Shown here one piece after another: positions 133 to 45,685 of a DNA stretch of 64,000 bases; within the stretch, counting starts at the first letter, position 1; each line of letters opens with the position of its first letter. This stretch comes from Cyanidioschyzon merolae. Taxonomy: Eukaryota. The notes under the pieces were generated by a model. The model searched no databases. It worked only from the letters and a program-made list of their open reading frames with translations, and had not been told where the DNA came from. The DNA lies in NCBI GenBank assembly GCA_000091205.1, contig AP006502.2; one strand, given 5' to 3'. The position numbers and the translations under genes were made by a program.

Positions 133-1396
133 CAAAGAGACACGCTACCAGCGTTTGGTGGTCATGGTGATGGTGGTAGTTATGGCGGCAGTGTCATATC
201 GATGCTGTCGCTCCAACGACTGCTGCTGTTCCAGGAGCACCGTGATACGGTGCTTCTCGACGAGATATGGTACGAACACCGCATCACCGACGGATGTGCG
301 CTGACGAGGTACTGCTTTTCCATGGGATCTAGCTCAAACGCCGTTTTCTCAACGGATGATGCTCGTCTCTGGTGGAATCGTCAACGCTGGAGCGATGACG
401 CTACTTGTGTTGCTCCATCGGTGATGCCCGGGAAGTTTTCGACGCTGACCTATCGATTCATTTGTGCACTGAGTGCTCGTTATTCGGCCAGGTGATGACT
501 GTATTAGCTGTATCTGATGGGGCAATGACCAACTCCTCTGTGAAGACACCGAGAGAATCCCACCCATTGAAGCTGATGGCCGTTGCGGCATTCGGGTTGC
601 CTCTGAGGCCGTGGACGAGTGCGTCATATCAGCGATTTGTCGCAGAACTTTCCGTTTGCAGAGACGGAGTGATTTATTGGATGGAGGCGGGCTTTAAAAG
701 GCATGAAGCGACGCGATGGAACTCGTTTCCACGATGATATACGCGATCCTGGCATCGTCGCTCGGTCTCTTTCGATGTAGCATGCGTTCACGACGGTTCC
801 GAGTTGCCGCCAGCTACAATGCAGTACGCAGCGGGTTTGGATGACGCTGCTTTCTGTGCTGGGCGCTCAGTCCGGCGCAAATCGTTTGCTGTGCAAAATC
901 AGTAATTTTATCGATTAGGGCGCTTTGGATGCGCGGGTTCTCGTTGTCGCATCAGCCATTCCAGCCGCCGATCATCCGGGTAGCCTCTAATCCCCGTATT
1001 CGATCCTGTAGAGACCCTGAATCGACAGCGATGCACCCACGGGGACACTAGTCCCCATCGAGACCGAGTCTTTCGTGCTGTAGGAGCGCCTGTGTACGAG
1101 TCATTGCCACGCGTTTCTGCATGCCGAACGATAATGCCCCTCATGGGCTCCGAACAAGAGCATCACGACGAATGGGTAGAGCGGTCATGATCAAGAAAAA
1201 TTCTGAGCGCGAGGCCTGCTCAGCAAGATAGCGAAGATACGCTGTACATCTGCGCAGCGTCGTTTCCTATCTCGCAGGCAGATGCCGCCATACCGAAGCA
1301 CTTTGCCTGGGCGAGAATAGGCATTTAACCTGTCGTAATGAGCGTTTGCTCTGGTGCCTTCCGACGACGTCATACCTACTGATTGCTCTGTAGCAT

Positions 1397-2341
1397 TCAA
1401 AAATGAGAACTCCGTTTGCGGCCACTGTATTTGCTGAGGGGGCGCACGGGCTTCCCCTGACGTAACCGTCGAAGACGTTGCTTCTCAATCAAACGACGGA
1501 CCGACTGCACCCTCCTATGAACTGACTTACGGGAAACATTTTGCTGCCTGTTCTTGGGAACTGCAGCGATTGCAGTGTTTCCCGCCGGCGCCCTTGTCTC
1601 ACAGAGCGATGCTTCATCTTCGGACACGTCATCCGTCATTGGTTCCACGAAGCGCCGCGCGACTGCAGGTGATAACGCCTGCTGGCGCATCGTTGTCGCG
1701 CGTTCCGCAGGGCCTGCTTGCAGCACCAAGTAAAACTTCTTTGCACGAGTGCTGTTCGGGTAGTCTACAACGAGCCCGCCATCAAAACCCGCCCGTTTCG
1801 CTTGCGCGAAAATGAAAGCCACCTGGCGTTCGTGGCTCGGGTAGAACTGGAACACTGCCCGCGCACCGCGTCGAAGACATGCATATAATGTCATGAAGAA
1901 GGTAAACAAACGCTTTCGCGGATCCTGGTCGCTTGCGTCAGCATGACAGAGCCACTGGAGCACTGAGATACTCACTGCTCCATCAAAACAGCCGATTTGG
2001 AACGGTAAACCGGCTCCGAGGTCCAGTTGAATGAGGTCACCGTCAACGTCGCGCTCGACGGCGACTGACAGCATGGCAGCGGCGATGTCAAGACCCACCC
2101 ATAGGTGCCCAGCACGGCTCAGGACGTCTCCACTTAGCCCAGTACCGCATCCCAAATCGAGTATGAGTGCAGGGCCCTGCTCTAGTGTCGACGGATCGAG
2201 ATCTAGTAGTTCTAGTGCACGCTCTGCCAAGCGGGTCTGTACCTCGACAGTGTGCGTGTGGTAGATGTACTTGCGTGCTTCCTTCGGGTCGTAGAAGACT
2301 TGCGGCGGTGCCTTGTTCTCGGGGCGCTGCGCCATCGACAC
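1397..2341 (-). CDS. BUD23: 18S rRNA (guanine-N7)-methyltransferase Bud23/WBSCR22 family
   Basis: 314-aa ORF. SAM-binding motif I LDLGCGTGLSG, conserved Bud23 N-terminus (YDPKEARKY..HTVEVQTRLAERALELL), basic Lys/Arg-rich C-terminal tail typical of Bud23. Confidence 0.85.
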   Translation of the reverse strand: MSMAQRPENKAPPQVFYDPKEARKYIYHTHTVEVQTRLAERALELLDLDPSTLEQGPALILDLGCGTGLSGDVLSRAGHLWVGLDIAAAMLSVAVERDVDGDLIQLDLGAGLPFQIGCFDGAVSISVLQWLCHADASDQDPRKRLFTFFMTLYACLRRGARAVFQFYPSHERQVAFIFAQAKRAGFDGGLVVDYPNSTRAKKFYLVLQAGPAERATTMRQQALSPAVARRFVEPMTDDVSEDEASLCETRAPAGNTAIAAVPKNRQQNVSRKSVHRRVQSVRRLIEKQRLRRLRQGKPVRPLSKYSGRKRSSHF

Positions 2342-2893
2342 GCCGTGCTCCGGTTACCAGCACCAGGTCACAGTGACCGGACGAACAATCCCGTCCACTT
2401 TATCGGTGCGCCTTGAGATGCAAGAACGAGAGGTGTGAGCGGCGCGTCAAGTAGAACACCCATACACTGGTATATGGGAAACCACGCGAAAACGCTTGCT
2501 GCCCCTCTTGAGCGACAACGAGCTGAAACTTAGAGTGTCCGGGTCGGCACTTGGGACACAGGTTCCAAAAGCTGGTACAGAGTGCTTTCAGAAGAATGCA
2601 GGCGGTGCCCGTGCTTTCGCCTCTGCACAAAGGTCCCTATGGCTACGGGCTCAAGTGTGAGCTGCTAGTCCACGATTGACGGTTGCGTTTCGCACGGGCG
2701 TCGATGGGAAACGTTGCTGGAATTATTGGGACACATATGTCCATTCGCAAGATCGAACAATATTGTATATCAATACTTATTTCTGTCTTGCCTGTCCATA
2801 AATGGACATGTGCTTTGCACTCCATCGCGCCCTGACCCAGCTCGCTCATCGCTTCGGCCTGCGCTCTAGTCACCAGCTATCACTACTTTCAGA

Positions 2894-3829
2894 ATGGTTC
2901 ACAGGGACCCCGCTGAAGAGCTATGGTGTGAGCTGTGGCAGCCTGGCGTAGACATCACGAGGAAAATGAACGCTATTTTCGGTTTAAAGGAGATCGGTAC
3001 GGAGCGTGCCGTGACGCTGCTCTGCGCAGCGTTACTGGACGCCCGGGAGCGGTCAGTTCTCGTGCGTCACGAAATTGCGTACGTACTCGGCCAGATCCAA
3101 AGTGCAGCTTCTATAAAAACGCTCACTGATAGGTTAATCGATACTGATGAGAACTCAATTGTCCGCCACGAGTGTGGGGAAGCGCTCGGTGCCGTTCGGG
3201 CTTTCGCGGTGCGACCTATCCTGCAGAAACTGTGTGGCGACGCGGTACCCGAAGTTCGCGAGACGTGCGTCCTGGCGCTTGAGCGGTTACGCTGGCTTGA
3301 AGAAAAGTCCACGAACGAGGAGCGCGTGCGAGAAACCTCGGCGAAAGCGTTCAAGCTCTTCGAAACGGTCGATCCAGCGCCGGCTTTTGTTGCACCCGAC
3401 GACCTAGAGGCATCCTGGTCCAACGCTGAGCTCGGTGAACTGCTCTTGAATGAAAACGAACCATTATTTCGAAGGTATCGGGCGCTGTTTACGCTACGTG
3501 ATCGCAATACGGACGATACGGCCGGGGTGATTGCGGCAGCGCTTCGACGGGACACATCGAGTGCCCTGTTCCGGCACGAGGTGGCGTATGTGCTGGGCCA
3601 GATGAGTCGTGCCTGCACGTTACCAGCGTTGGAGTCTGCTCTGGCTGACACACACGAACACGCCATGGTGCGACACGAAGCAGCGGAGGCCATTGGTGCG
3701 ATAGGTAACTCAAGTGCATGCGATATATTGCGGAGATTTCTGCGAGATGCGAATGTCATCGTTCGAGAGAGCTGTCAGGTGGCTCTAGATATAGCTGGAA
3801 TCTCTGACGACTGCCAGTTCATGGACTAG
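2894..3829 (+). CDS. DOHH: Deoxyhypusine hydroxylase (HEAT-repeat, His-Glu diiron motifs)
   Basis: 311 aa. Four HE motifs in the characteristic two-lobed layout (RHEIAYVLGQ, RHECGEALGA, RHEVAYVLGQ, RHEAAEAIGA), as in eukaryotic DOHH. Confidence 0.85.
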   Translation: MVHRDPAEELWCELWQPGVDITRKMNAIFGLKEIGTERAVTLLCAALLDARERSVLVRHEIAYVLGQIQSAASIKTLTDRLIDTDENSIVRHECGEALGAVRAFAVRPILQKLCGDAVPEVRETCVLALERLRWLEEKSTNEERVRETSAKAFKLFETVDPAPAFVAPDDLEASWSNAELGELLLNENEPLFRRYRALFTLRDRNTDDTAGVIAAALRRDTSSALFRHEVAYVLGQMSRACTLPALESALADTHEHAMVRHEAAEAIGAIGNSSACDILRRFLRDANVIVRESCQVALDIAGISDDCQFMD

Positions 3830-5378
3830 ATCATCAGAATTTTTCATATCCGTATCGTGTGCTTGGGCGAGTTGCAATACTCAAGTGTGGCAGCCAACAC
3901 GAACAGGAAATCGCTCTCCGGTACCGAATGGTCTCATGAGCTGCATCGTATTGTCTGTTGATGAGTTGATTGCATTGTCGTGCAGGGAACCTCAGGAGCG
4001 GCTATGGTGATCGGGAATCCCGTTTCAGGCTGGCACCGCTGGACCGAACAAGAATGCACCGTAATCCCTGGATACACAGAGGCGCACTGAACCCATCCAT
4101 GTGAAGCAGGCATGGTGTGAGGCTCCTTCGCAATAAATGGACGCCGCTTGCACCTTGTATGAGGTGCGAATTGTTTGTAGACAATTCGTCGGGAACGTGC
4201 TGATATTCAAGATATCGATGCTGGTGGGTAATTCCGGCAGCAGTGCGCAACTGCGCGCCGAGTCCTTCGAGTGTACTTGCATCCAGTATGGCTTCGCCGC
4301 ATGCCGGCCTCTAAGCCGTGCGAGCAGGGCTTACTCCTTTGCTTTTATCTGTGACAGCCAACACGAGAAGCATACTCGAGTTAGCGCCAACCGATCGTAC
4401 GGGTTCTGAATGTAACCGAGGCACCCAGCAGGCGTGTCGGAACTCTTGTGGATGCATATGCTGGACCGGCGTTCCAGAGCGAACGATTCGAGAAATGGGG
4501 CACTGTTTCGGACTTGTGGGCGCGAGGTCAAGGGCGGCGTAGGTGCGTTCGCAAACGCCGAAGTTGCACGATGCCCCGTTATCGAGGTTTTGTCGATACG
4601 ATTGGGGAGTAAACTCCTGGGTCGATTTTAGCATTCGGTGGCGTCTAGAACGTTCGTTTGGCCCGGATATCGATATGCACGAACTCTCCTGAACGAATGG
4701 CCGGGTCATGTTTAGACACACTCAGTAATATCGAATAATGCAACACCATTCTCGATTGGCAGTCGCCCAGGGATACCATTCCGACTACATAAATACGATG
4801 TTGCAGACTTGTTGTATTCCTGACCATACCATACTACTGAATTGCTCCAGGCGAGAATCAGATGCCGCCTCTCTAATGTCCTTGAATTCGTTTATCAAAG
4901 GTCGTCAGCGATTCAGGGCAATGCCCACGGCCTGTACGCAACGATCCGCTCCGGGGTCCGTTCGATGCAGAGCTCATGCGCGTTTCGCTAGCAGAGGCCA
5001 TCTCCGAACGTTGTTCGACAGACGCTCATATCTCGATCCATAAAGGGCCGTCACACGCTTCGACAGGTAAACGCACACAACTGCATGCCGCTCGCTCTCG
5101 TTGCTCGCTGCATCGGACGTTATCTCAGCGTACCGTGCAACATCTCGAGCGTCCGGCTCTGTTTCACGCTCTTCTCCTCTACCGGCATCAGCGCGCAACC
5201 GTGCTCTTGATTTCTGCATATTGTCCTGCATCCATCGATAAGCATCGGAAAGAATCGATTCCTTCGCTCGTTGCACGCTCTCGTAGATGCAGCAGGAATG
5301 CAGCCCGAGCGCGTTCCAGCGCCTCGAGCGGCAGTGCGCTGCCACCGAACAGCACGACGCATCATGCACTATCGGGTT

Positions 5379-5421
5379 GATGTTCATGTTCATGTTCATG
5401 TTCATGTTCATGTTCATGTTC
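5379..5421. repeat. (ATGTTC)n hexanucleotide microsatellite, ~7 units (3 units in duplicate copy at ~18008-18026)
   Basis: Direct reading: atgttcatgttcatgttcatgttc... Unit number differs between the two duplication copies. Confidence 0.9.
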
Positions 5422-6885
5422 AAGTCCATGTCCTTGATCAAGTCCTTGAGCGTGTCCACGTCCATGTCCATTTCATGGAAACCGTTGGCCAGTCTGCGCT
5501 TCTTGCCTCCGTGCAGCCGGAGCATCGGCGAGTCCGGTGCGGCTCCATCTAGTGCCTCCATAGATTGTCTGCATGAGCCATTTGGACGCTCATGTGCTCC
5601 GTGAATGCGGCGTTCAGAGAATACCTCAGACCGCTGGATTCGGCGCTCAGAGCGTCAACATGGGTCACGACGCTGTCCTTGCACTCGCTGGTAGACCGCT
5701 GGGCGCCCGCCATGTCGGGCTCCCGTTCATGCCCTTCCCTGCACAAGCTGCGCAGTTGCATTTGCTCGCCCTGAGGATCTCCGGATACATCCCCTCGATG
5801 TAGAGATACTGCATCTGAGATGACGGTTTCCAGCTGCGGATCCGGGTCCGCCGCAATGTTCGTCTCGTCGTCTACCCTGACAGGTTGAAAAAGCTGCTCG
5901 TCGGCTGACGCTGGCCTCGGTTTCATGGAGTCTGTGTTTGTGTGTGTGTGTGTGCGTATGTGTGCAGACGGACAGTCCGTCGGTGCATCGTCCCTGTGCA
6001 TTTCGTCTTGTTTCCTTCGTGTGACAGAGAAACCTTGAACGAGCCTCTGCTCTGCTCTGCTCTGCTCTGCTTGAGGCTGCTCGAGCGATACGTCGCTGCT
6101 CGAAGAGATACCAGACCCTCTTCGCTATCCGCTTCACTGGGATGCCCGGTCATGGTCTGGTTGCTATGCTCTACGTCTGTTTTCCTCCTTGAGAAGCACA
6201 CGGACTGGATGGGCACTGTTACTAAGACTCGCCTTCTCTGTGTATGTATCGGCGCTCTCTCGGACACGTTTTCGTTACCTTCTTGAACGCGAGCGTGTCC
6301 ACGCACTGAAACGTGCCCCTGCGCTCCCTCCTGTGCAAGAGACGCGGCCCAACACGGTAGTTCAGGGCTGGTGGAGGTATCGCAAGCGTCGTCGAAAAAC
6401 TCGAGTGTTACGGACGTGACTGACGCACCACTAGATCCGTGAGCGTCAGAGCGGCTTTTGCCAACAGAAAAGACGCTTTCGACTGGAATGGACCAACGGA
6501 GAGTAGACTGGCAGGAAGCGCAGCTCTACGCAGTCTCAGCTGCATACTCGGTGACTGCTTCTTGTTGTGACGGGAACCGACGTTTTCTAGCAGCAGGACA
6601 GAAGAGCTTGGGAACGAGGTTCCGTGAGCACTTCTTAGAAGATTGAGGTTTTTGAAGGATCCGGGCTGTTCAGCGATCTCGGGGCGACCAGACGTGTTAC
6701 CCGCCGCTAGCTAGGACTGTTGTTGCCGTCGCGCTCGCTTGTCTTGGCTGAACGAACTGCGAATCGCCCCTCTTTAACTACCCGTGCGCAAGTCTACGCG
6801 TTCTCACGAACAAAGTCGCATCGAGTGAGACATGCAGCAGTCTGTCCCACGGTAAGCGATCCCTGAACAATACAAAAGCAAAGCT

Positions 6886-6906
6886 GAGCTGAGCTGAGCT
6901 GTCCGA
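6886..6906. repeat. (GAGCT)n microsatellite (expanded to ~11 units at 19488-19546 in copy B); (GT)n at 5934-5960 and (GCTCT)n at 6040-6076 nearby
   Basis: Direct reading of gagctgagctgagctgagctg. Copy B carries a longer array with one variant unit (gagctaagctg). Confidence 0.85.
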
Positions 6907-7339
6907 CACAGGATACGTTCCGGTGGCATCGCGCTTTCTCCCGCGTCCATTGGTGGCCCTTCACCGCTCTTCGTATCATGGGTACGGAAGTTTCAGAAAC
7001 TGTGGCTTTGCCAGTAGAGCTTCATAGCGAACGCTTGGAGACGAATGGAATGACGAGACGACGGTCGTGGAGATCGAGGTCCATAGGTTGCACGTCGGGT
7101 GCACCATGTCCAGACCGAGGACTAGGCAGCGAATGGCCCGTGCATCTGCCCACCGAAGAATGCCTGAATACTACACCTAAGATCCTCTGTCGCATGCTAC
7201 CAGAGACATCATAAAGTCGTCCCGCAACGCTCTTCCAACATGCTGGATACAGTCCATTAGTTGAGTGCCTGCGAGAAAAACAGAGGACGACGATGAAAAC
7301 GGCGTGCTGGTACAGGAGCTCCAGAATGCACTGCTCTGT

Positions 7340-10300
7340 TTATAGGCTCTCGATAGATGCCAAGTACTGGTGTGGGGAGAGCACGCTTGTACCGCCAATT
7401 ACCACGTCAATCTGCAGATGTGTAGCGAGTCCTCGTATCTGCTCCACTTCAAGAGCGGTGACTCCACCAAGTACCACGAACAGGAAGCGATCGTTTCGGT
7501 AACGTTCAGCGGCTCGCTGGAGACGATCCACCAACGCTGCATGCACTCCAGCGTCCTCGGGCAATGTTTCAGTCGCATCTTGCTGCTGCTGCTGCAGTGC
7601 CTCTGTGCCGTCTAAGGCTTCACAAACAGTCGCTTGTGATCGCACGTTCCTTTGTGCACTAGATGGGGGACTTGACGGCGACAGCGCCTCTGCCAGCATG
7701 CCTGCTTCTTCAGCGATACGCAACCTGCTGCGACGTGCACTGCGTTTGACGTCGACATCTGGCGTCGCCCGGTCGACTTGCTGAACGACTCGTGGAGTCG
7801 TTTGCGTGTCGGCTGCCGTTCGCTGTTCGTCGCTTTGATTACATGTTGTCCCTGGACTGTGCATCATATGCGCGTCCTCAGAATGAATACCTTTGCGGGT
7901 GTTCTGGCTGGGCATGGCGTCCAGTTGCATACCGACAGCAGCATCGTGCGTCATATCATGTCCCTGGGTTGCAGGCGTCGTCGTCGTCGTCATCGTCGTC
8001 GTCGCAGCGAGCGGAGCTGTCACGTGAGGCTCGGGCGCTGGCGACGGCGCTCGCGGCTCCACGAGCAACGTAGACAAGAAGAGTTCCGCAGCCGGTGACC
8101 CCAGCGGCTCCTTGTGTTCATGGTCGGACGCAACAGCGCTGTCGTCGTGCCCTTCAGCGACTTCATGTCGTTGTTGAAGATCGAATGCGCCCATATACTG
8201 GAGCAAAATTTGGCTCGCCATCGTCTCCGGTAACAGTAGCGATCCAAGTGACTCGTGTACCAGCACTCGAGCTCGCCGTCTCCGTCGCACGCGGGCGGAG
8301 CGCGTTGCCCACTTGGCGGCACGAAGGCGTTGAAGAAACGCATTCGCCGTTCGTATCAGCGAGTCTTGCGTCTGCAGGTCCAGTCCCGGAATTTTCTGGA
8401 CCAGTTCCCTGACAAGATGTGGGTCCCGGCATCCAAGGAACACCAGCAGTAAGCGCAGCTTGTCGGAGAGCGCATACGTGTCCGCTTCGAGAACCTTTTC
8501 CACGGTACGGCGCATCGTAGCGGAACTGATTCGTGACCCTTGATCCTGCTTGATACCCATGACGATGCACCTTTCCAACGCCGATAAATAGAGTAGATTT
8601 CGTTGTTGCTGTTCTTGGAGACAACGCTCCAGGCTCTTTGCATGCCAGCGCAAAGCGGAAAGCAACTCCAACTGCGCCGGGTCCGCTGCTTGGAGGCTCT
8701 CAAGCGCTCGCTTCAGCGAGGCAAGATCCAGGTCGATACATTCCGCATGAGTCACGCGGTTATCTGAGTCAGGCTCGCTGGATGCGAGGAGCGGCTGCGC
8801 GAGCGCCTGCAGTTTCGCCACAGCGTCCGATAGCGTGTACTGTCGCAGCGCTCGCCAGACCGCATCGTGCTCGGAAGGCCACTGCGGTCGGGCGTTTCCC
8901 GCTGCATCATTCAGTTCCAGAAGCATGCCGCGGTAGGTGTTCACGTGTAGCAGAGGCGTAACGGGGTCCACGGCACGATCCATGAGCAGGAGGTGCAGGG
9001 CACCGCGCCCTGCCACCAAACCTGGACAGAACAGCGGCAAGAGATGCACCGCTGCATACGTCTGAGCCGCCCTGGCAATGCAGGTCGCTTGTTCACTAGC
9101 CGCAGGAGAGGTATGAATCTGAATCCAGGGGGCTTCATTCGCAAAGGTGCCTGCACCCATGCCGTGCAGTAGGGTGCCGATCTGGTGACCGAGTTCCTCC
9201 ATGAGCTGGAACCGCATGGCGCAGGTCTCGGGAGCATCTGCACCGTACAAGAGACCAAATACGTCTTCCCGATTCTCGATACTTACCACTTGTTCCTCGA
9301 TCGGGAAAAAGTCCACATGAATGGGTAGTAAGACGGTGCTTCCGTCAACGTCCGCCCAGGAAATGGCGTGGCGGCGGGGCAGCGGTGCGCTCGGCGAACG
9401 CGTCAACAAGAGCCGCACCGGCACTGGAGCGCTTCGCTTAGCCTCATAGCGCGCCACACTGGTCATCCAGTCGCCCGTTGGAGCCAGAATATAGATTGTT
9501 GGGAGCTCTAGTTCCCGATTTCCGCAACGAGGAAGCTGCTCCAGGAGACATATCCGTGCTGAAGGGAAGCATTCGGCCAAGTTTGGTCCCAGGGCATATT
9601 TCAGGAGCACTGCAGTGCGGGCGTCGAGAACAAGAAGCCAATCTCTTTGCCCAAAGTGCTCCACTTGATCGTGGACAAGGGCGACCAGGAGACGCTGCAC
9701 TCGCTGGACGATGCTGAAAGGTTTTTGAGAATCGTCTATCGACCCGAAGCTCGGCAAACTGAGCATCAAAGGCGACAGGCTGTCCATGGACAGGATCCCC
9801 CCCGGAATACCCCAGCGCGGCTCATTCGCTGCCTCAGACCCGAGACTCGTCGGGCTGAGCGTGCCCTTCTCCGCTGCATCAGCTGCTTGAAATCCGTAGG
9901 CAGCCCCGAAATGCGCTTTTTTCTCGAAGCCAGCTCGTCGCTGCCGTCGTCTGCGCAGAAGGCACCATACCAACAATACACCGAATACCAGAGCGAGTAC
10001 GATCAGCACCGCCACAATGGCAGCTACGGCACCTGTACTGATGCCTTGAGCGGGACCCGCGGTCACAGCGTTGGCCTCGTTTGGATCCTGGACATCAACC
10101 GCGAGCACGTTGTCCGCGCCACAAGATACGGGTCCGAGCGCCGTCAAGTTACTCAAATGGCCCCTGCATACAAAGCGATTCAACGCTGTTTGCCAAGCAT
10201 CTAAAGCACTTGCGCTGATGACGCCCGCATAAGTGGCGATCACTGATCCAGCACGCAGATCGACCAGCACCAGCGGCGGGTCCGACAGAAGCGCTTCGCG

Positions 10301-11371: not shown

Positions 11372-13237
11372 CCCTGCGCGTAAAACTCAATGAAAACAAA
11401 GCGCGTGATACCTGGAAGCGCAAGGCGGATCGCAGAACAGAAATCTCTGTTCATTGTAGGAGAAATAGGCATTCGATCGATCCGAGTATGGACGCGTGGC
11501 CTGGGGAGCAAACAGCGCCGGCTGGTGGCGCCTCGAGGGCCGGTGGCGGCACGTGCCGCTTCCGCGCACAGGGCGGCGCTTTTGTTGTGGCCCGGACCTA
11601 GCGGGGAAGCCGACGGAGATGGTTCATATTTGTCTATTAATGAATAAGAATATGAAGCGGCAGCAGGGCAATCGAGGTCTCCGCGCTCTTGCGCGTACCC
11701 CGCTGGACAGGAAAATGCGTACGCGCGCGCGGCTCGCATCCGATGATCGACACCTGTGATCGATACACATGCGATACTGAACTGCTCGTGCTATCCCTGC
11801 GTTGTGACTTGTCGCAAATTGCAGCGTTAAACGGACAACCTAGAGATCAAAAGTGCATGCATAGGAGATTACGGGTGCATATATAGGTATACGATTTTTG
11901 ATCGATTTTGTTCGGAGTGGGTTCTTCGAAGCTTTTGCGCCTGGGATTCGTTACGTTCCCAGAAACAAGATGACTGGGGGCGGCGCCCACAAATAATGAT
12001 TGGGAAAATAACCAATGTCGCGATGCAGCGTATGCGTCCAAGTCTCCGCTATTCTTCTATCGTTACATGTATCATGTTCAAATCACGTATTCTTCGTGGT
12101 TTCGATCGCACTGTTCTGAAGCGAGTCGTGCACGCAGTAATGCACGTCGCCGGATTGGCCACGAAACCAGAGCTCAACGTCGACTCTCGAAGGCGTTTTT
12201 CACATCGAATCATTTGTCTCGTTCGAAACACAAATCCGCCTCTGTTTCGAGGCATCGACCAATCGGCATTCGCCTGGAGCATAATACCTGTCACGGGATA
12301 TGCTCGCAAGGGCCCCTGTCTCTTCTCTTTGCATTCAAAAAAGGGTACTGGACACGAGCTCCAGTTATCGCAACGATCACTTCCCGTGGACCATAAGCGG
12401 ATGGAAAACTCTCGATCTCTCCTCTAACCTGGATTCCGCTTCCGAAACGTGTTCCATCATGACCAAGATCGCGTTTCATAAATCCCGTCTCGAATGGAAC
12501 ACTGCGCGCTTGCGCTCGCGGAGGATACCCTATTTACTGCGTGAATCGCACAGAAAAAACATGTGATCATGCGATACGACGATGTGTGCGAAAATGCAGG
12601 ACGGTACCGAAAGAAGCCTTCCGTAGTGTCCAGGTACATGCGGCAATCGATGAAGCAAGCGTTCAAGCTGCACTAGCCGCCGATAAAAGAGAGGGCACTT
12701 GTTGCGATGGACATCTGGGACGCCTGACCGCTGCCAAGTGTCACTGCTGCGAGGGACGAACCGAGGTCGCGTTCGAAGAACGTGCGTAGATCACAACTTT
12801 TGCCGGTGCATGAATCGCGTGAACAACACCCAGAAGCAGCGAAATCGGCGACTTGGACGCTACGATCAATACCCCTTGACCGGCATTAACAGAGCTGAAC
12901 AGACAGGAGAGATCGACGTAATCTGAGCCTGAGACCATACGGAGGTAAGGCAGGCAGTCGGAGACGAATCCCTCAAAGACTTTTGTTCATGACTGTGGGA
13001 AGCATCCCAAACTTGAGAATGTACGCTCGAGTTAGACCAGTGGACCTGCACCTTTCGATTCTGATATCGCGAGATGCTCGGTCGAGCAAAGAAGCAGACG
13101 TCGACCGGGGGCTGGCGGGTACATCTATTCAGCCAATCCCAGACGCCTTCCAGCCTTTATTAGGCCGGCCGACTGCTAACGGTTTCAGTTTATCCGGGCA
13201 CACTTCGAACCTCAGAGGCAAACCCCACGAAGCTGGA

Positions 13238-13576
13238 TTACGTCAGGCCGTCGTGTCTCGTCTTCAGCACCACACAGCGTCTGATATTGATAGCAGCGTT
13301 GAAGCCCCGGGTCACGAACTCCATGCGTTTGTTGCCTCTGGTCGAACTCACAAGTGCAAGAATTGCTAGAACTCGTGCCCCATCAGAGCCACTACAGTCT
13401 CGACATTGTCCTGTCGGGCAAGCACCGTGTCCCGCACATCTCCGCTCTTCCTCGTCTTTTGCTTCTACATCACTTGCTCTTCTTCGCTCGATCGTCGGCG
13501 AGAAGAGGATTTTTCTGTTTCCTTTCCAGTACCCGGCGATCTCGGGCCCGCCAGGACCCCTGACTTGCACGTCCAT
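13238..13576 (-). pseudogene. Degenerate Fanzor/TnpB-like nuclease remnant (C-terminal zinc-finger and RuvC-III segment only)
   Basis: ORF ends ...CAGHGACPTGQCRDC..VLAILALVSSTRGNKRMEFVTRGFNAAINIRRCVVLKTRHD. Clearly homologous to the C-terminus of the intact Fanzor-like ORF at 43056-44669 ([38 protein letters not shown]). No RuvC-I or RuvC-II region precedes it; the upstream part is replaced by a minisatellite. Confidence 0.55.
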
Positions 13577-13782
13577 ATCCGCCCCTTGGGTTTCTTACTT
13601 GTCCAAACGAGCACATGTCGAAAACGTCCAGCATAAACCGCAAAAAAAAGCACTTGACGCAACGCACCTGGAGATGGAACGCAATTCAGATGAAAGTCCA
13701 GAACGCACGCTGCGGCACCGGATCGCCGCAAGATCGCAGGCGCGCAGCGTGCACAGACGGCGCCTTTGCCGCTGAGGGTAGC

Positions 13783-14010
13783 GTCCGTCACGAGAAGCGG
13801 CCTGTGCGCGTCTGTCACGAGAAGCGGCCTGTGCGCGTCTGTCACGAGAAGCGGCCTGTGCGCGTCTGTCACGAGAAGCGGCCTGTGCGCGTCTGTCACG
13901 AGAAGCGGCCTGTGCGCGTCTGTCACGAGAAGCGGCCTGTGCGCGTCTGTCACGAGAAGCGGCCTGTGCGCGTCTGTCACGAGAAGCGGCCTGTGCGCGT
14001 CTGTCACAGC
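13783..14010. repeat. 27-bp minisatellite (gtcacgagaagcggcctgtgcgcgtct), ~8 tandem copies
   Basis: Perfect period-27 repeats starting at 13787, 13814, ... 13976. They produce artefactual repetitive ORFs in three frames (13465-14025, 13615-14130, 13766-14116). Confidence 0.9.
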
Positions 14011-14075
14011 TGGGAACGGCTGCACAGCAGTGCTTCGCGCTCACTTGGCTGTTCCAGGAAAGCACATCTGGGGCT

Positions 14076-14366
14076 ATGTCGACGTCAAGGTTGTGTACAA
14101 GTTTCCGAGCGATTAACGGCCGGGGCTTAGGGACTCTCGTTCCACGGCGAGGGCTGCACCAGACAACAGCGAGAAACCGAGCGACGCACGGCGAACACGA
14201 CGAACACCACGATGTGTACGGGTACCTGCACGCTCCGCACATGTACGACTTGAGTCACGCAAGCAAGTGGAAGTACGGCATTGCGACGTTTACATTTGTT
14301 ACAACAGGGCTGGGATTGCCTTTCTTCATGGTATGGTACTCGCAGAAAAAAGCCGGCATATGGTAA
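14076..14366 (+). CDS. Small mitochondrial single-TM protein, cytochrome c oxidase subunit 7C/Cox8-like
   Basis: 96 aa. Arg-rich presequence-like N-terminus, then KWKYGIATFTFVTTGLGLPFFMVWYSQKK, aligning with the COX7C KW-x16-PF-x-V-x6-K transmembrane signature. Assignment made from memory of COX7C only. Confidence 0.4.
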   Translation: MSTSRLCTSFRAINGRGLGTLVPRRGLHQTTARNRATHGEHDEHHDVYGYLHAPHMYDLSHASKWKYGIATFTFVTTGLGLPFFMVWYSQKKAGIW

Positions 14367-14471
14367 GACGGTTTCGATCAAGGTATTGTTGCTGGGGCTG
14401 TTGGCTGCTTCTTGAGGTTGGCGTCTCGTGTCCAACTTGTAAACACTACTTGTTTCTGAGTAACCCACGTT

Positions 14472-15128
14472 TTAGAGATACCGTTGGGGGAAGGAGAAAA
14501 TAGGTTCCATAAGAGAAGCAGCGCTCGGCAAACCAGACGCAGACGTGAGTACGTCGCGCACAAGCAGCGGCGGTTCAAGGCCCAGCGCCTGGGCACGTTC
14601 CCAGCGCTCGAGGCGACTGATACCTACACAAGGGCCGTATCGCACATCGAGGTCAAACATACGTAAAATATCTTCAGCATTTTCGTATCCCTCTGGACTT
14701 GCTGTCAAAGTGGAGGCACCGCCCCCGACTGTCGCTCCCTGCAATGTCGCTGTCGTCAGCGTTCTTGACGGCCTCGGAGCCTTCGTTGGCGTCTCCGGTG
14801 ATAACGTTCCTGACCTTGGTGCCGCCTCCTCAAACGTGCCAGGCTGGTGCGCTTTGTGTAACACGCGCACAGGTGTCGTCGAACCTGGTACGCTTCGTGC
14901 GGAAGCGGTCTGCGCGGCGCCAGACTTGGAAGCGCCACTTAAGGTCGATTTTCGACTCGTTGCTTCCATACGCAGCGTCTGTCTATCATGCTTTTGGTTT
15001 CGTGCGCTAGCCCTTGGAGAGCTGGCAGCTGCCGCGCCACCGGTCGCCTTCGAGACGCCCTCCGAAGTGACGTGCTGCTTGGCAGCGCGGGACCTGCCTC
15101 CTTGCCTCGTTCGCGTCGACACTGGCAT
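14472..15128 (-). CDS. POLD4: DNA polymerase delta subunit 4 (p12/Cdm1)-like protein with a long low-complexity N-terminal extension
   Basis: C-terminus ILRMFDLDVRYGPCVGISRLERWERAQALGLEPP matches the conserved POLD4 motif FDLxxxYGPCxGIxRLxRWxRAxxxGLEPP. The real start may be an internal Met. Confidence 0.5.
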   Translation of the reverse strand: MPVSTRTRQGGRSRAAKQHVTSEGVSKATGGAAAASSPRASARNQKHDRQTLRMEATSRKSTLSGASKSGAAQTASARSVPGSTTPVRVLHKAHQPGTFEEAAPRSGTLSPETPTKAPRPSRTLTTATLQGATVGGGASTLTASPEGYENAEDILRMFDLDVRYGPCVGISRLERWERAQALGLEPPLLVRDVLTSASGLPSAASLMEPIFSFPQRYL

Positions 15129-15449: not shown

Positions 15450-16196
15450 ATGGCGCTTCGCGTTCAGTTCGAGAACAATAACGATATCGGGTGTTTCGCC
15501 CGACTCACGAACGCTTACTGCCTGGTAGCCGTCGGCGGAAGTGAAGCGTTCTACTCGGCGTTCGAAGCGGAGCTTGCGGATCATATTCCTGTCATTCACG
15601 CTTCTGTCGCTGGTTGCCGCATCATCGGCCGGCTGTGCGTGGGTAATAAGCACGGCCTACTGCTTCCGAGCACCACGAACGATCAGGAGCTTCTACACAT
15701 CCGGAACTCGTTACCCGAGAGTATCGTAGTGCAGCGCGTCGAAGAGCGTTTATCTGCTCTGGGCAACTGCATCGCTTGTAACGACTACGCTGCGCTGGTG
15801 CATACGGACTTGGATCGTGAAACGGAGGAAATCATAGCGGATACTCTGCAGGTGGAGACGTTTCGTCAGACGCTTGCTGGCGAGGCGCTCGTTGGCAGTT
15901 ACTGTTACTTCACGAATCAAGGCGGCGTTGTTCACCCTATGTGTAGAGTGGAGGACCTAGATGAGCTCAGCGGCCTCTTGCAGGTCCCGCTGGTCGCAGG
16001 CACCGTCAACCGAGGCAGTGAAGTGATTGGAGCGGGGATCGTCGCCAACGACTGGCTCGGCTACTGCGGCTTTGCGACGACCGCAACAGAGCTATCTGTT
16101 GTGGAGAGCATTCTCAAGCTACGGACTTGGGCTGATAACAATGCATACGATTCGAGCGGTGCATTCAAGTCGGCGCTTATTGATGCCTTGGCTTGA
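15450..16196 (+). CDS. EIF6: Eukaryotic translation initiation factor 6 (eIF6)
   Basis: 248 aa, collinear with eIF6 throughout ([27 protein letters not shown]..., [81 protein letters not shown]). Confidence 0.92.
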
Positions 16197-17349: not shown

Positions 17350-20110
17350 ACTCAGTAATATCGAATAATGCAACACCATTCTCGATTGGCAGTCGCCCAG
17401 GGATACCATTCCGACTACATAAATACGATGTTGCAGACTTGTTGTATTCCTGACCATACCATACTACTGAATTGCTCCAGGCGAGAATCAGATGCCGCCT
17501 CTCTAATGTCCTTGAATTCGTTTATCAAAGGTCGTCAGCGATTCAGGGCAATGCCCACGGCCTGTACGCAACGATCCGCTCCGGGGTCCGTTCGATGCAG
17601 AGCTCATGCGCGTTTCGCTAGCAGAGGCCATCTCCGAACGTTGTTCGACAGACGCTCATATCTCGATCCATAAAGGGCCGTCACACGCTTCGACAGGTAA
17701 ACGCACACAACTGCATGCCGCTCGCTCTCGTTGCTCGCTGCATCGGACGTTATCTCAGCGTACCGTGCAACATCTCGAGCGTCCGGCTCTGTTTCACGCT
17801 CTTCTCCTCTACCGGCATCAGCGCGCAACCGTGCTCTTGATTTCTGCATATTGTCCTGCATCCATCGATAAGCATCGGAAAGAATCGATTCCTTCGCTCG
17901 TTGCACGCTCTCGTAGACGCAGCAGGAATGCAGCCCGAGCGCGTTCCAGCACCTCGAGCGGCAGTGCGCTGCCACCGAACAGCACGACGCATCATGCACT
18001 ATCGGGTTCATGTTCATGTTCATGTTCAAGTCCATGTCCTTGATCAAGTCCTTGAGCGTGTCCACGTCCATGTCCATTTCATGGAAACCGTTGGCCAGTC
18101 TGCGCTTCTTGCCTCCGTGCAGCCGGAGCATCGGCGAGTCCGGTGCGGCTCCATCTAGTGCCTCCATAGATTGTCTGCATGAGCCATTTGGACGCTCATG
18201 TGCTCCGTGAATGCGGCGTTCAGAGAATACCTCAGACCGCTGGATTCAGCGCTCAGAGCGTCAACATGGGTCACGACGCTGTCCTTGCACTCGCTGGTAG
18301 ACCGCTGGGCGCCCGCCATGTCGGGCTCCCGTTCATGCCCTTCCCTGCACAAGCTGCGCAGTTGCATTTGCTCGCCCTGAGGATCTCCGGATACATCCCC
18401 TCGATGTAGAGATACTGCATCTGAGATGACGGTTTCCAGCTGCGGATCCGGGTCCGCCGCAATGTCCGTCTCATCGTCTACCCTGACAGGTTCAAAAAGC
18501 TGCTCGTCGGCTGACGCTGGCCTCGGTTTCATGGAGTCTGTATTTGTGTGTGTGTGCGTGTGCGTATGTGTGCAGACGGACAGTCCGTCGGTGCATCGTC
18601 CCTGTGCATTTCGTCTTGTTTCCTTCGTGTGACAGAGAAACCTTGAACGAGCCTCTGCTCTGCTCTGCTCTGCTCTGCTTGAGGCTGCTCGAGCGATACG
18701 TCGCTGCTCGAAGAGATACCAGACCCTCTTCGCTATCCGCTTCACTTGGATGCCCGGTCATGGTCTGGTTGCTATGCTCTACGTCTGTTTTCCTCCTTGA
18801 GAAGCACACGGACTGGATGGGCACTGTTACTAAGACTCGCCTTCTCTGTGTATGTATCGACGCTCTCTCGGACACGTTTTCGTTACCTTCTTGAACGCGA
18901 GCGTGTCCACGCACTGAAACGTGCCCCTGCGCTCCCTCCTGTGCAAGAGACGCGGCCCAACACGGTAGTTCAGGGCTGGTGGAGGTATCGCAAGCGTCGT
19001 CGAAAAACTCGAGTGTTACGGACGTGACTGACGCACCGCTAGATCCGTGAGCGTCAGAGCGGCTTTTGACAACAGAAAAGACGCTTTCGACTGGAATGGA
19101 CCAAGGGAGAGTAGACTGGCAGGAAGCGCAGCTCTACGCAGTCTCAGCTGCATACTCGGTGACTGCTTCTTGTTGTGACGGGAACCGACGTTTTCTAGCA
19201 GCAGGACAGAAGAGCTTGGGAACGAGGTTCCATGAGCACTTCTCAGAAGATTGAGGTTTTTGAAGGATCCGGGCTGTTCAGCGATCTCGGGGCGACCAGA
19301 CGTGTTACCCGCCGCTAGCTAGGACTGTTGTTGCCGTCGCGCTCGCTTGTCTTGGCTGAACGAACTGCGAATCGCCCCTCTTTAACTACCCGTGCGCAAG
19401 TCTACGCGTTCTCACGAACAAAGTCGCATCGAGTGAGACATGCAGCAGTCTGTCCCACGGTAAGCGATCCCTGCACAATACAAATGCAAAGCTGAGCTGA
19501 GCTGAGCTGAGCTGAGCTGAGCTGAGCTAAGCTGAGCTGAGCTGTCCGACACAGGATACGTTCCGGTGGCATCGCGCTTTCTCCCGTGTCCATTGGTGGC
19601 CCTTCACCGCTCTTCGTATCATGGGTACGGAAGTTTCAGAAACTGTGGCTTCGACAGTAAAGCTTCATAGCGAACGCTTGGAGACGAATGGAACGACGAG
19701 ACGACGGTCGTGGAGATCGAGGTCCATAGGTTGCACGTCGGGTGCACCATGTCCAGACCGAGGACTAGGCAGCGAATGGCCCGTGCATCTGCCCACCGAA
19801 GAATGCCTGAATACTACACCTAAGATCCTCTGTCGCATGCTACCAGAGACATCACAAAGTCGTCCCGCAACGCTCTTCCAACATGCTGGATACAGTCCAT
19901 TAGTTGAGTGCCTGCGAGAAAAACAGAGGACGACGATGAAAACGGCGTGCTGGTACAGGAGCTCCAGAATGCACTGCTCTGTTTATAGGCTCTCGATAGA
20001 TGCCAAGTACTGGTGTGGGGCGAGCACGCTTGTACCGCCAATTACCACGTCAATCTGCAGATGTGTAGCGAGTCCTCGTATCAGCTCCACTTCAAGAGCG
20101 GTGACTCCAC
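17350..20110. repeat. Segmental duplication copy B (direct repeat of ~4725-7468)
   Basis: Same ORF translations as copy A, with microsatellite length differences: (ATGTTC) 3 vs 7 units, (GAGCT) ~11 vs 4 units, (GT)n variants. Ends inside a truncated copy of the Sec1 3' end. Confidence 0.85.
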
Positions 20111-20111
20111 C
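19983..20111 (-). pseudogene. Truncated duplicate of the Sec1/Munc18 gene 3' end (last ~42 codons) carried by duplication copy B
   Basis: ORF 19983-20231 ends WGGVTALEVELIRGLATHLQIDVVIGGTSVLAPHQYLASIESL. This is near-identical to the C-terminus of the 7340-11371 Sec1 ORF (...GGVTALEVEQIRGLATHLQIDVVIGGTSVLSPHQYLASIESL). The upstream part of that ORF is unrelated. Confidence 0.65.
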
Positions 20112-33930: not shown

Positions 33931-34272
33931 CCATTATCCTTTCCGAATCCTCGGATCCATGGTCAGTCTAAACATTCTCTCATCTGAAAAGAATTCGACA
34001 TACGCTGTGTAAATGTTCAAAGCGAGCACCATATGAACTGGAACGCTACCAATGGCTAGAACGTGTGTCGAAGGAGACCTATTCATCCCGAGGAAGGTCT
34101 CGTGGGGTCTTCTCGGGCGCTCCGGCGCACGCGCCAAGCAAATTTCGAACCTCCGCTTGTGCTTATACAAGCATGGGAGACAAGCACTTCATGAACACCA
34201 CCATGACGAAGCTTTACCGCTACTAAACGAAAGTAGACTGGTTAAACTTGACGAAAGCGTTCAGGTTCCTTT

Positions 34273-42896: not shown

Positions 42897-43055
42897 CAGG
42901 TAGAGTGGGAGCCTGACGGGCTGTTTGCCGCACCAAGCGACGTTCTAAACTCGAACGACGTCGGGCGTGTACAGTAGTGGCGAACCGTACGCCCTGGACA
43001 AGAAGTCTTCAACCGAGGTGCAGACGCCTCCCCGTCTTTTTGGACCGGCTACCTA

Positions 43056-44669
43056 CTACTGATTCCAATTTTTCTCATATAATTCAACTTTTAGAGGTTG
43101 TCTACTAAAGTTCTCTCTTGTCCATTCTGGAGGTCTTTTCTCCAGCACCGCACATTTCCCTATATTGACAGCGGCGTTAACGTCACGGTTCACAAACTCC
43201 ATCCGTTTCTTGCCATCACTGGTTGTACTTCCTAATGCAAGTAGTCCACGAACTTTCGACATCCTTTCCATATGCTCTTCCGTCAGCGGTCCATACCTTT
43301 TTATATCCTCAGGGCTCCTCTGGCACTTTTCTATCCCGACCCCTTGAAGTGTGCACGCCACTTCATGGTGTGTATACGATGTGCGAACCTCACCTACAAG
43401 TATTGTAACGAAACGCCTTGCGCACTCCGTGTACGTTCTCGTCGTTGGAGCTGGTGTAGTTCCTTTTTGGGTCATCCAGTGTCCTGCTCCGTATGTTGCT
43501 ACGAGCCTCTGACCTTCATTCCCCTTCAAGGCGCTCAACTCATTGAAAAAATTCGCGAACGCCCCCTGCTTCCCACAATACAAATTCATTCGCAAACGAG
43601 CCCACCGGGGCTTGGCATACTCCTCCCACAGCGCATCCCAATGAGCGACGCGAACTTCCATAAACTCCCGAAAAGCTTTAAAATCCGCTCCTCGGCTTGT
43701 CACCTCGCTCAAAGCTTCCAGGTGCTCGTTCATTCCTGAATTCCACGTCTCTATTTTCTTCCTTGCATTCATGATTCCCGATTCTCGATAGTATCTCGCT
43801 CTCGAGAACCTCAAAAGACGCATGTCTTTCTGACGTAAGTTACCATCAGTGCCATCTTTCGCACGCTTCGGTGCTGCGATGGTTATGATATTTGTGCTTC
43901 CTGGGTCCGCACCAACGGCAAATTCGTTATCCTGCACTTTCTGCGTCTCAGGACCCGCCTCTTTTTTTTCTTCATGCTTTACCGCGTCAACGACGAAGTC
44001 GTTATCCTCCACCTCTTGCGTCGCAGGATCTGCCTCCTTCTCATCTTCATCCTTCGTCACGTCAACGACGAGGTCGTTATCCTGTACTTTCTGCATCGCA
44101 GGTTCCGCATCCTTCCCATCTTCATCCTTCGTCACGTCAACGACGAGGTCGTTATCCTGTACTTTCTGCATCGCAGGTTCCGCCTCCTTCTCATCTTCAT
44201 GGTTCGCCGAGGGCGGAACTGGACGATCTGTCTTCAACTGCCGATAGTGTACACACAACGCTACTCCATCGGTTTCGATCATCCTAGTGAACAACTTTTG
44301 TTTGCTCACTTTGAGACGTTTGAAATCGAAGATATTCTTCCAGTACGCCTCCTGGTTTTCACCGGAGAACTCCTTCCTGCTAACATTGAACTCCAGACTG
44401 ATCTCCTTAAAGATGCCGTAAAGGACGCCGGAGGCGATACTCAAAAAATGTGACTTGATGTTGTACATTGGAACCACGTTGAAGCGCTTACCCATCAGGA
44501 ACGCCTTCCGTCTCTCCCACTCTTTATTTGTCTCCTCACGCAGCTTCATCTCTGCCTTGCGTTCGAGCTCTCGGTCCAGAAACACGAAATAGCGCAGGAC
44601 GAGGCAATAGTATCTTTCCTTATGTTTTTTCAACTCTGATATCTTGTCTGTTGGATTCGCCAACCCCAA
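43056..44669 (-). CDS. Fanzor/TnpB-like RNA-guided RuvC-fold endonuclease (eukaryotic OMEGA-type nuclease)
   Basis: 537 aa. RuvC-I-like [16 protein letters not shown] (Asp); Fanzor-typical segment [15 protein letters not shown]...W after RuvC-I; RuvC-II/zinc-finger region [15 protein letters not shown]...C; Ruv[25 protein letters not shown] (the DxNAAxNI hallmark of TnpB/Cas12/Fanzor). The N-terminal part carries ~3.7 in-frame 25-aa tandem repeats. Confidence 0.7.
43919..44198. repeat. In-frame 75-bp tandem repeat (~3.7 units) inside the Fanzor-like CDS
   Basis: Plus-strand units gtcaacgacgaggtcgttatcctgtactttctgcatcgcaggttccgc.tcctt..catcttcatccttcgtcac. They encode [28 protein letters not shown]-type repeats just upstream of the RuvC-I motif. 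Confidence 0.85.
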
Positions 44670-45249
44670 GACTGCACGATGCTCTCGTATAACCGCACGG
44701 ATGACAGAAGCTTCATTCGTGCTCCTGCGTGACGCCTTCTCATAGACGAATTCGATCTCCTGCTCATGCTGGCGATCGTTCGTGATGCCATTGATAATCG
44801 TCTATATCCTCTTGGGAGAGATGCCCGGGTAGAGTGCAAACACGGCGCGTATCATGAGACGTTCGAGGTTCATTGTCAAATCGTTCATCAGGTTTCTGAG
44901 GTACTTTTCGCCCCGTAGTTGTAAATATTCCCGTCATCCTTGTATCGAGTACCGTTGGGGCGGGATTCTGCGTAATTTTAGTGCAGGGCATGCACTCGCT
45001 CATTTCTCCTCGACGTTTCCCTCGTACCAAGCATCAGGTGACGAATATAGGTCTTGTCGAAGAACTCGTCCGGAACCTCGACCGTTTCCATGTGCGTCAC
45101 GTCGCGATACATCTCCCTTACCAATTGCATCAGTCCTGACGACGCCTTTACAATACTCTTGGAGTACGAATCGACACGGTTTCTGATCGCATCTCGCAAC
45201 TTTTCCTTGTACGGATCCTTGATATGTGCAAGAAGGTTCCCCAGGCTTG

Positions 45250-45685
45250 TGGTTCATGCTCCCCCATTGTCTAGTGTTATCGTGAGATCTAAGCTACTCG
45301 TCCGCAGTGCAGTTCATTCTGGGACCGTGAACGGGATCATTGGGCGTAACGCTGGTCCCAGTTGACTCCCAGTATATCGCTTCACTGCCGCAGGCAATGA
45401 GTCTATCTTTACAGTTTGCAGGCTCCCAGAATAATGATGTACTCCGACCCCGTATCGAGTGGGTCACCCCTCGAGCCGGCGCCATCTGTGGTACGGCAAC
45501 GCCGTTCTGTCTGCGTGCGGCGACCGCATCGGCGCTTTAGGCGCCATTGCGCACTACCAGGGCAAGCAATCGGCACACGATTGAACGTACGAAACGACGA
45601 TTATATCCGAGAAGGAGTACGGATAATGTTACTTGGAAGTAGGGTATGGATCGATGGATGCTTCACCGCGCACTGAAACAAAGAA
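45250..45685. repeat. Dispersed ~435-bp repeat family, copy 2 (partner 33495-33930)
   Basis: See copy 1. Lies ~600 bp 5' of the Fanzor-like ORF start on the same side. Confidence 0.6.

Follow-up and report, generated by a model that had tools for sequence, protein, structure and literature searches.

How much of a Fanzor gene survives in a short annotated reading frame of the red alga Cyanidioschyzon merolae, and is the tandem repeat beside it connected with what was lost? The locus lies in a 64,000-nucleotide stretch of chromosome 20 of C. merolae strain 10D, which we refer to as the window and whose numbering is used throughout. An original prediction, made by reading this sequence without database searches, described the locus as a decayed Fanzor-like copy, the remnant of a second insertion, with a 27-bp minisatellite fused to it. 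We find that the sequence from about 13045/13140 to 13695 on the minus strand is very probably an old, inactive and non-autonomous copy of the Fanzor1 transposon CMe-1A, and that the minisatellite is a separate matter. The reading frame itself is an exact match to BAM83304.1 (CMT349C), annotated as a hypothetical protein, and its setting is as follows.

13238..13576, minus strand: ORF CMT349C, 112 aa, an open frame running through the relic and starting at the ancestral Fanzor1 ATG
14472-15128, minus strand: DNA polymerase delta subunit D (BAM83305), the next annotated gene
15450-16196, plus strand: eIF6 (BAM83306), the annotated gene beyond BAM83305

The CMe-1A family was described in C. merolae as comprising about 150 copies, each about 80% identical to a consensus of about 3 kb, with no terminal inverted repeats (TIRs) and with undetermined target site duplications (TSDs) (Bao & Jurka 2013, Mob DNA 4:12, PMC3627910). 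The supplement to that paper provides a 3169-bp consensus together with the 734-aa CMe-1 protein, and TE-N2_CMe, a sequence of 635 bp that corresponds to the 5' end of the CMe-1A consensus, is listed as a separate repeat (PMC3627910). Our search of the literature on Fanzor in red algae returned nothing beyond this work. The family, its abundance and its age have been known since 2013, and a further copy of it is ordinary, with no novelty of kind; only a short two-module subfamily and the alleles of the minisatellite are mildly new. The C. merolae genome measures about 16.5 Mb, and some 150 copies of CMe-1A correspond to roughly one per 110 kb. The initial estimate of at least two insertions in 64 kb is right in that two copies are there, and too low in that two older relics and one TE-N2_CMe copy (33343-33984) are also present in the window.

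The last 46 codons of CMT349C, whose protein product (pA) ends in ...GNKRMEFVTRGFNAAINIRRCVVLKTRHDGLT, are homologous to the RuvC-III block of Fanzor1. BLASTP aligns residues 67-107 of pA with residues 471-512 of the protein of the copy at 43-45 kb (copy B) at 55% identity over 42 aa (E 1e-10), and residues 67-112 are 66% identical (E 1.5e-14) to residues 647-693 of the CMe-1 consensus protein as published. A family HMM from which CMT349C was left out, searched against the six-frame translation of the window, matches pA at profile positions 542-585 (i-E 5e-9), and between 12 and 15 kb there is no other match to it. This places the similarity in the RuvC-III block and not in a generic zinc-ribbon, the outcome that would have refuted the prediction, and it bears out the prediction of a dead Fanzor-derived sequence paralogous to copy B. 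The family profile in turn matches the Fanzor1 structures of Parasitella parasitica (9cf0, E 3.6e-21) and Spizellomyces punctatus (8gkh, E 1.9e-13). Pfam has no family for either pA or the copy B protein (pB); the family is too divergent for PF07282, which was found in distant relatives only, and a word-indexed protein search with pA returned its own cluster (90%) alone. These matches show that the locus derives from Fanzor1; they do not speak to function.

The relationship is not limited to the reading frame. When aligned to the CMe-1A consensus, the relic resolves into two modules joined at a junction, followed by a poorly preserved end.

13390..13695, minus strand: 5' module, CMe-1A consensus 793-1070, with the proximal 5' leader, then the ATG (906) and ~55 codons from the start of the gene
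13381..13389, minus strand: deletion junction, approximate, from consensus ~1070 to ~2842, where the modules end and begin
13140..13380, minus strand: 3' module, consensus 2842-3083, the last 46 codons and then 3' tail (alignment, 68% over 244 columns)
13045..13139, minus strand: probable diverged remainder of the 3' terminus (consensus 3084-3169, terminal hairpin region), boundary approximate

The 5' module is 61.5% identical to the consensus over 309 columns, with the ATG at 13576 aligned to the consensus ATG at 906, and its score of 112 compares with 29 +/- 3.7 (maximum 40) for shuffled sequences, about 22 standard deviations above them. A profile of 20 full-length 5' regions matches 13695-13452 (E 3.8e-17) and, reciprocally, a profile of the relic's 5' part matches about 60 full-length loci just upstream of, or across, the start of the Fanzor ORF. 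The 3' module, with its degenerate RuvC-III codons at 13241-13378, matches consensus 2849-2970 in blastn at 78.7% over 122 bp (E 3e-23) and has matches in more than 50 family loci; a query of 12000-14300 gave the expected matches to 13255-13380. In the comparison of the relic with copy B, which had been suggested as a check, the protein alignment over 42 aa given above is accompanied by nucleotide homology that runs on past both stop codons.

That all of this is chance or a generic motif, at a locus unrelated to Fanzor, is an explanation to which we give next to no credence. It could appeal to the length of the protein match, only about 46 residues, and to the silence of Pfam, but the nucleotide homology to the consensus spans both modules, about 550 bp, and continues past the stop codon into non-coding tail, with E values of 3e-23 (blastn), 3.8e-17 (5' profile) and 1.5e-14 (protein).

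Everything upstream of the RuvC-III part was originally thought to be missing, yet 13695-13390 holds the 5' leader together with the ATG and the earliest codons of the gene. Since window positions 13695-13390 and 13380-13140 align to consensus 793-1070 and 2842-3083, respectively, the relic is an internal-deletion derivative and has not been 5'-truncated. The sequence lost at the junction, whose position is resolved to about 10 bp, amounts to about 1.77 kb (consensus ~1071-2841) and includes RuvC-I, RuvC-II and the zinc-ribbon region. Consensus 1-792 was not found at the relic with either 5' profiles or consensus alignment, and consensus 3084-3169 is not securely alignable; at 13045-13139 there is patchy similarity only to the 3' end of the family, for example TCGAAAGG, and this segment folds into different hairpins. 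As a complete element the relic fails, with neither consensus terminus (1, 3169) secured, and searches for inverted and direct repeats found no TIRs or TSDs at its edges. A stretch of extra 5' sequence (GCGCGCCTGCGA) that the relic seemed to share with a paralogue (L013b) was dropped as a candidate, as a stricter alignment did not reach that far.

What the deletion and later decay did to the nuclease can be read against the family. The 537-aa protein of copy B has 119 relatives, nearly all from hot-spring metagenomes, and in an alignment of 20 of them the RuvC triad of D (DPGxTN), E (DEFRTS) and D (NRDxNAAxNI) is invariant. The RuvC-I Asp (DPGxxN motif; family D255) is absent from the relic in the profile search, lying in the deleted consensus 1071-2841, and the RuvC-II Glu (DEFRTS motif; family E427) is absent in both the profile search and the consensus alignment. 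The RuvC-III motif, predicted to be retained, is indeed there in the degenerate but recognisable form FVTRGFNAAINI, and what has not been retained is its invariant residue: the family-invariant Asp (D496 of the NRDxNAAxNI motif) has given way to Gly in 10D, and to Cys in other strains. The zinc finger attributed to the locus is not there. The profile match to pA begins at position 542, after the zinc-ribbon (TNB) region, and the Cys-rich stretch of pA at codons 47-61, which looked like a zinc finger, derives from the 5' end of the element (consensus ~1040-1070), being largely a frame-shifted reading of the region that encodes ...RRQRLQERRQYDEMVV near the N-terminus. Having lost RuvC-I, RuvC-II and the zinc-ribbon region, and with Gly in place of the RuvC-III Asp, the relic cannot encode a nuclease. 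Compared with the Fanzor1 proteins of 8gkh and 9cf0, its source family matches them by profile and carries the D/E/D triad, whereas the relic has only the RuvC-III neighbourhood, with Asp changed to Gly, and lacks RuvC-I, RuvC-II, WED/REC and the zinc-ribbon, and so it is not a Fanzor protein.

Copy B had been regarded as intact and active-looking, which would have made the two loci a natural comparison of a live with a dead insertion.

42967..45663, minus strand: copy B, consensus 65-494 joined to 1080-3137, ~87.5% identity (blastn to consensus)

Copy B, too, has lost part of the element, namely consensus 495-1079, comprising leader, ATG and the first 58 codons. An in-frame stop lies at 44802-44804 and a frameshift near 44915-44942, and its longest ORF is 43056-44669 on the minus strand; the orthologues of copy B on L005 and L006 carry the same frame shift. 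The D/E/D residues are kept (ADPGSTN at RuvC-I), but copy B cannot make a full-length protein and is dead. Because both copies in the window are dead, the comparison of intact with dead is not available here.

Whether the relic lost its interior in place or arrived without it is a question that other copies can address. The comparison set consisted of 80 family loci from metagenomes, searched by BLASTN with 12000-14300. Three of these loci match the whole ORF region including its 5' two-thirds (L013:5731-6161, L038:6393-6654 and L029:7362-7520), and together with the relic they align end to end, across the same junction, at L013:5723-6259, L038:6279-6783 and L029:7218-7521. In terms of the consensus, L038 consists of 785-969 plus 2833-3169, reaching the exact consensus end with 81% identity kept to that point, L013 consists of 842-969 plus 2907-3084, and L029 covers 881-961 before its contig ends. 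At a further locus, L016, the short-element profile is tiled by two segments, 2127-2389 (hmm 7-286) and 4301-4562 (hmm 286-545). The flanks of the short copies are unrelated to those of the relic: in L013, L029 and L038 the 12000-14300 query gave matches to the element alone, and among the family loci a query of 13650-14400 had no match outside the orthologous loci. Because three paralogues in unrelated contigs have an identical layout across the junction, the deletion predates insertion at this locus, and we infer a single deletion in a progenitor, with the short form copied afterwards. Independent decay or gene conversion, instead of copying of a short form, may also have produced the pattern; the short copies seen number only four, and three lie no more than 3 kb from a full-length copy. 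They begin some 150 bp inward of the core element's 5' end, and their apparent start points vary (profile positions 155, 169, 195 and 246).

The two-module short form (~785-1070 plus ~2833-3169, ~620 bp) could be a true non-autonomous 'mini-CMe-1A', a suggestion that we offer tentatively and think rather less probable than its being no such unit. If it were one, it may have been copied after the deletion by the machinery of the full-length element, and the copy in the window may be an old, dead member of the subfamily. Internal-deletion derivatives that are non-autonomous are known among DNA transposons, Ds from Ac and many MITE precursors being examples. The relic resembles these in keeping end regions while losing the coding interior, and in that one breakpoint layout occurs in dispersed copies; it differs in that both ends are only partly kept, the short copies lacking the first ~150 bp of the core element. 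It is also not a copy of TE-N2_CMe, the other short repeat related to CMe-1A, as it contains none of consensus 1-635. Set beside ordinary CMe-1A copies, the relic belongs to the same genome and family, both of its modules align, and it likewise shows no TIRs or TSDs at its edges, whereas it lacks consensus 1-792 and 1071-2841, is far more diverged than typical copies (~62-68% identity), and has a two-module form not described in the main text of Bao & Jurka (2013).

The divergence bears on whether such a short element might still function. Over the 270 columns at the 3' end, the relic is 62.5% identical to the consensus, as against 84-94% for 72 full-length copies. The full-length copies are conserved through the 3' tail to a terminal hairpin, e.g. 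CGTCGTTCGACTTTCGAACGGCG, and the terminal segments of 62 full-length tails fold better than their shuffles (median z -2.4). RNAalifold applied to the same number of full-length 3' tails, 62, gave essentially no consensus structure, and in four helices drawn by hand 80% of cells are paired, with covariation of 0.122 against 0.123 in shuffles. Rfam returned no match at the gathering threshold across the window and none at E<=1 over 12900-14100. The guide RNA of Fanzor and TnpB reportedly derives from the 3' end of the element. By analogy with other Fanzor and TnpB systems, and not as a finding of ours, an omegaRNA in the CMe-1A family is plausible; we claim no structured RNA here, and the tail of the relic is too diverged for function to be expected of it. 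We therefore weighed, and consider very unlikely, the reading that the short element continues to work as a non-autonomous unit whose 3' tail serves as an omegaRNA scaffold or as a transposon end acted on in trans. The strong conservation of full-length tails to a terminal hairpin that folds better than shuffled sequence, the origin of characterised guide RNAs at element 3' ends, and the short paralogue L038 with its 81% identity through the exact consensus end all speak for it. Against these stand a relic tail only ~62% identical to the consensus, with the terminal 86 bp barely recognisable; covariation no different from shuffles, an empty RNAalifold result and no Rfam match; and a window without an intact full-length Fanzor1 gene. 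An inactive copy remains our preferred reading of the relic.

As a reading frame, CMT349C moves in and out of register with its ancestor, with frame changes in the 5' module. Relative to the consensus ORF, 203 nt are in frame and 100 nt out of frame, and the ancestral frame is confined to 9 codons at the start, some short patches and the final 46 codons. The frame is open in six of six cluster members and in every orthologous contig seen, although this says little because the haplotypes are 98.5-100% identical. Among strains that are ~99% identical, the variants are D2N, G91C, T112I and T112M plus one synonymous change (one synonymous and two non-synonymous from DNA, and two more non-synonymous from cluster members); the ratio of 4:1 non-synonymous to synonymous is compatible with neutrality, in numbers too small to be strong. 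None of the three paralogues keeps the CMT349C frame, and L013b has no corresponding ORF. ORFs of 112 aa or longer are frequent on both strands of this GC-rich stretch, at least seven overlapping ones of this size occurring on both strands within 12983-14242.

These observations can be set against the idea of domestication, with CMT349C a genuine gene for a small protein in which the start codon and the C-terminal helix of Fanzor1 have found a new use. Its annotation in the reference, its start at the ancestral ATG and its openness in all six cluster members and all orthologous contigs are what one would point to, but orthologues at least 98.5% identical are too close to reveal constraint, the four non-synonymous variants against one synonymous include the former catalytic position, and paralogues do not preserve the frame. 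In addition, the N-terminal two-thirds are mostly frame-shifted ancestral sequence, there are no relatives past the protein's own 90% cluster and no Pfam domain, and equally long ORFs are common here on both strands. We give domestication a very small chance, and infer instead that CMT349C is non-coding, an open frame that arose by chance and whose start coincides with the ancestral ATG.

There remains the tandem repeat, which lies beyond the 5' edge of the relic.

13696..13780, no strand: unique 85-bp spacer between element edge and minisatellite, no similarity to any family locus
13781..14007, no strand: minisatellite, 8.4 copies of GCGTCTGTCACGAGAAGCGGCCTGTGC, between CMT349C and a COX7C-like ORF

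Tandem Repeats Finder gives a period of 27, 8.4 copies and 99% matches at 13781-14007, and a pattern search recovers eight units where shuffles predict none, the first unit carrying one mismatch; the tandem array as originally described is real. The array begins 86 bp beyond the element edge (~13695), 205 bp from the ATG of CMT349C and about 400 bp from the deletion junction. Because of those 205 bp nothing is fused to the ORF, and the repeat does not occupy the place of the missing part, as had been supposed. Nothing in the spacer 13696-13780 corresponds to the distal part of the full-length 5' region, and the 27-mer occurs neither in the 80 family loci nor anywhere else in the window; when the window and 84 loci were searched in all rotations with up to four mismatches, the orthologous locus alone matched. 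The stretch between CMT349C and the COX7C-like ORF, in which the array sits, carries no annotation, and neither does that ORF.

The array varies between strains, as the original prediction had proposed to check. Contigs that span it have alleles of 38 bp (1.4 copies; L001, L002, L085), 65 bp (2.4; L096) and 92 bp (3.4; L095), compared with 227 bp (8.4 copies) in 10D, and the remaining contigs break inside the array. Short-read metagenome assemblies, in which repeats can collapse, are the source of the 1.4-copy alleles; collapse is argued against by the 2.4- and 3.4-copy alleles, which have a distinguishing variant first unit and are shorter than the assembly k-mer that the 'k141' contig names imply. 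The flanks of the orthologous contigs are 98.5-99.8% identical, and the element is 98.5-100% identical among strains. L095, with 3.4 copies, and 10D have the same ORF sequence, which means that the array is altered more quickly than point mutations build up. One unit bounded by an 11-bp direct repeat, GTGACAGACGC, makes up the 1.4-copy allele. Short direct repeats around a unit are a classic substrate for slippage, and the array has probably expanded by replication slippage. With its head-to-tail, near-perfect units and allelic variation in copy number, it has what minisatellite and VNTR loci share and nothing unusual. The data go part of the way to establishing it as a recent VNTR of host DNA, separate from the transposon.

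Lying outside the element and missing from 80 other family loci, the minisatellite is not a deletion scar. The alternative that it was taken to support holds that the insertion, once full-length, was stripped here of all that preceded the zinc finger and RuvC-III, with the minisatellite filling or marking the scar. The RuvC-III homology is real, and the array is indeed upstream of the ORF, no more than 205 bp away, but the 5' leader and ATG of the element sit between the RuvC-III remnant and the array, the breakpoint at ~13381-13389 is roughly 400 bp away, and three paralogues with the same layout have no array. Nor does an array that ranges from 1.4 to 8.4 copies while the element stays constant, and whose 27-mer is absent from 80 family loci, fit such a scar, and we consider this account highly improbable.

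The history that we favour for the relic would begin with a progenitor CMe-1A losing about 1.77 kb of its interior (consensus ~1071-2841), a loss that would have brought the proximal 5' leader and the beginning of the gene up against the final ~46 codons and the 3' tail. Copies of this short form would then have been made in several places, one of them the locus in the window, which would since have decayed. Separately, a single 27-bp unit flanked by the 11-bp direct repeat would have expanded recently to the 8.4 copies seen in 10D.

For the C. merolae reference, the CMT349C entry should be renamed as a transposon relic and the unannotated COX7C-like ORF merits a gene model, while the 27-bp VNTR, 69 bp upstream of the COX7C-like start codon, could serve as a strain marker. 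For the family, a short internally deleted form present in several copies could help to work out what a Fanzor1 element requires in cis. Were the two-module form to prove a true non-autonomous unit, the cis-requirements of Fanzor1 elements for mobility or retention would be reduced to ~290 bp around the start codon and ~330 bp of the 3' end, the latter being the presumed guide-RNA region, and the core element could do without the first ~150 bp of its 5' end.

The second Fanzor copy on this stretch, copy B, which the original prediction described as active-looking, proves to be defective: it is without the ATG and the first 58 codons, it carries an in-frame stop at 44802-44804, and its reading frame is shifted near 44915-44942. 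This copy, the relic and the repeats that accompany them are set out below.

Fanzor-related and neighbouring features (window positions, except where a fetched contig is named)
42967-45663, minus strand: copy B, CMe-1A (Fanzor1 transposon) consensus 65-494 joined to 1080-3137
43913-44200: coding tandem repeat in copy B, 75 bp, 3.8 copies
33343-33984, minus strand: TE-N2_CMe, complete 635-bp element, CMe-1A consensus 2-636 at 81.5% identity
13140-13695 (the relic), L013:5723-6259, L038:6279-6783, L029:7218-7521: short two-module copies
4720-7468 and 17350-20111: direct duplication, 2.75 kb, 97% identical
5123-5368 and 5552-6124: older Fanzor-like relics in the first duplicate (family profile)
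17753-17998 and 18158-18757: older Fanzor-like relics in the second duplicate (family profile)
12068-12766: another dispersed repeat, immediately downstream of the relic
14076-14366, plus strand: COX7C-like ORF, 96 aa, Pfam PF02935 match

The copy number of the 75-bp coding repeat differs between members of the Fanzor family, and TE-N2_CMe is also present in many of the fetched loci, at differing positions and orientations. None of the short two-module copies reaches the 5' end of the core element: they start about 150 bp in from it, at points that apparently differ from copy to copy (profile positions 155-246). The poly-T tract near 13658, within the relic, varies from 7 to 9 T between contigs, and in one orthologous contig an unrelated 75 bp (L089:1-75) is attached at this tract, a join explained either by chimeric assembly across the repeat or by a structural variant.

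The 2.75-kb duplicates lie 12.6 kb apart, one on each side of the relic locus, and R1 of the duplication overlaps the last 128 bp of a Sec1-family gene. Each duplicate contains GTTCAT and CTCTG microsatellites together with Fanzor-like relics that are older and far more diverged (matched by the family profile at E 2.5e-10 to 3e-14 and 4e-4); the duplicated repeat did not turn up among the 80 family loci. The dispersed repeat at 12068-12766 shows 68-93% similarity to sequence in six fetched contigs (L024, L017, L019, L039, L054 and L057) and overlaps a 143-aa ORF (11996-12427) that is reported by metagenome gene callers and has no Pfam match.

On the other side of the relic, the COX7C-like ORF is matched by PF02935 with 30.1 bits (E 5.9e-7; the Pfam cut-off is 25). 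It is absent from the reference protein set, where BAM83305 (POLD4) comes right after BAM83304, the ORF of the relic, and metagenome gene callers call in its place an antisense ORF running through the minisatellite. Since the end of this variable array lies 69 bp from the ATG of the COX7C-like ORF, the spacing of its upstream region shifts with array length.
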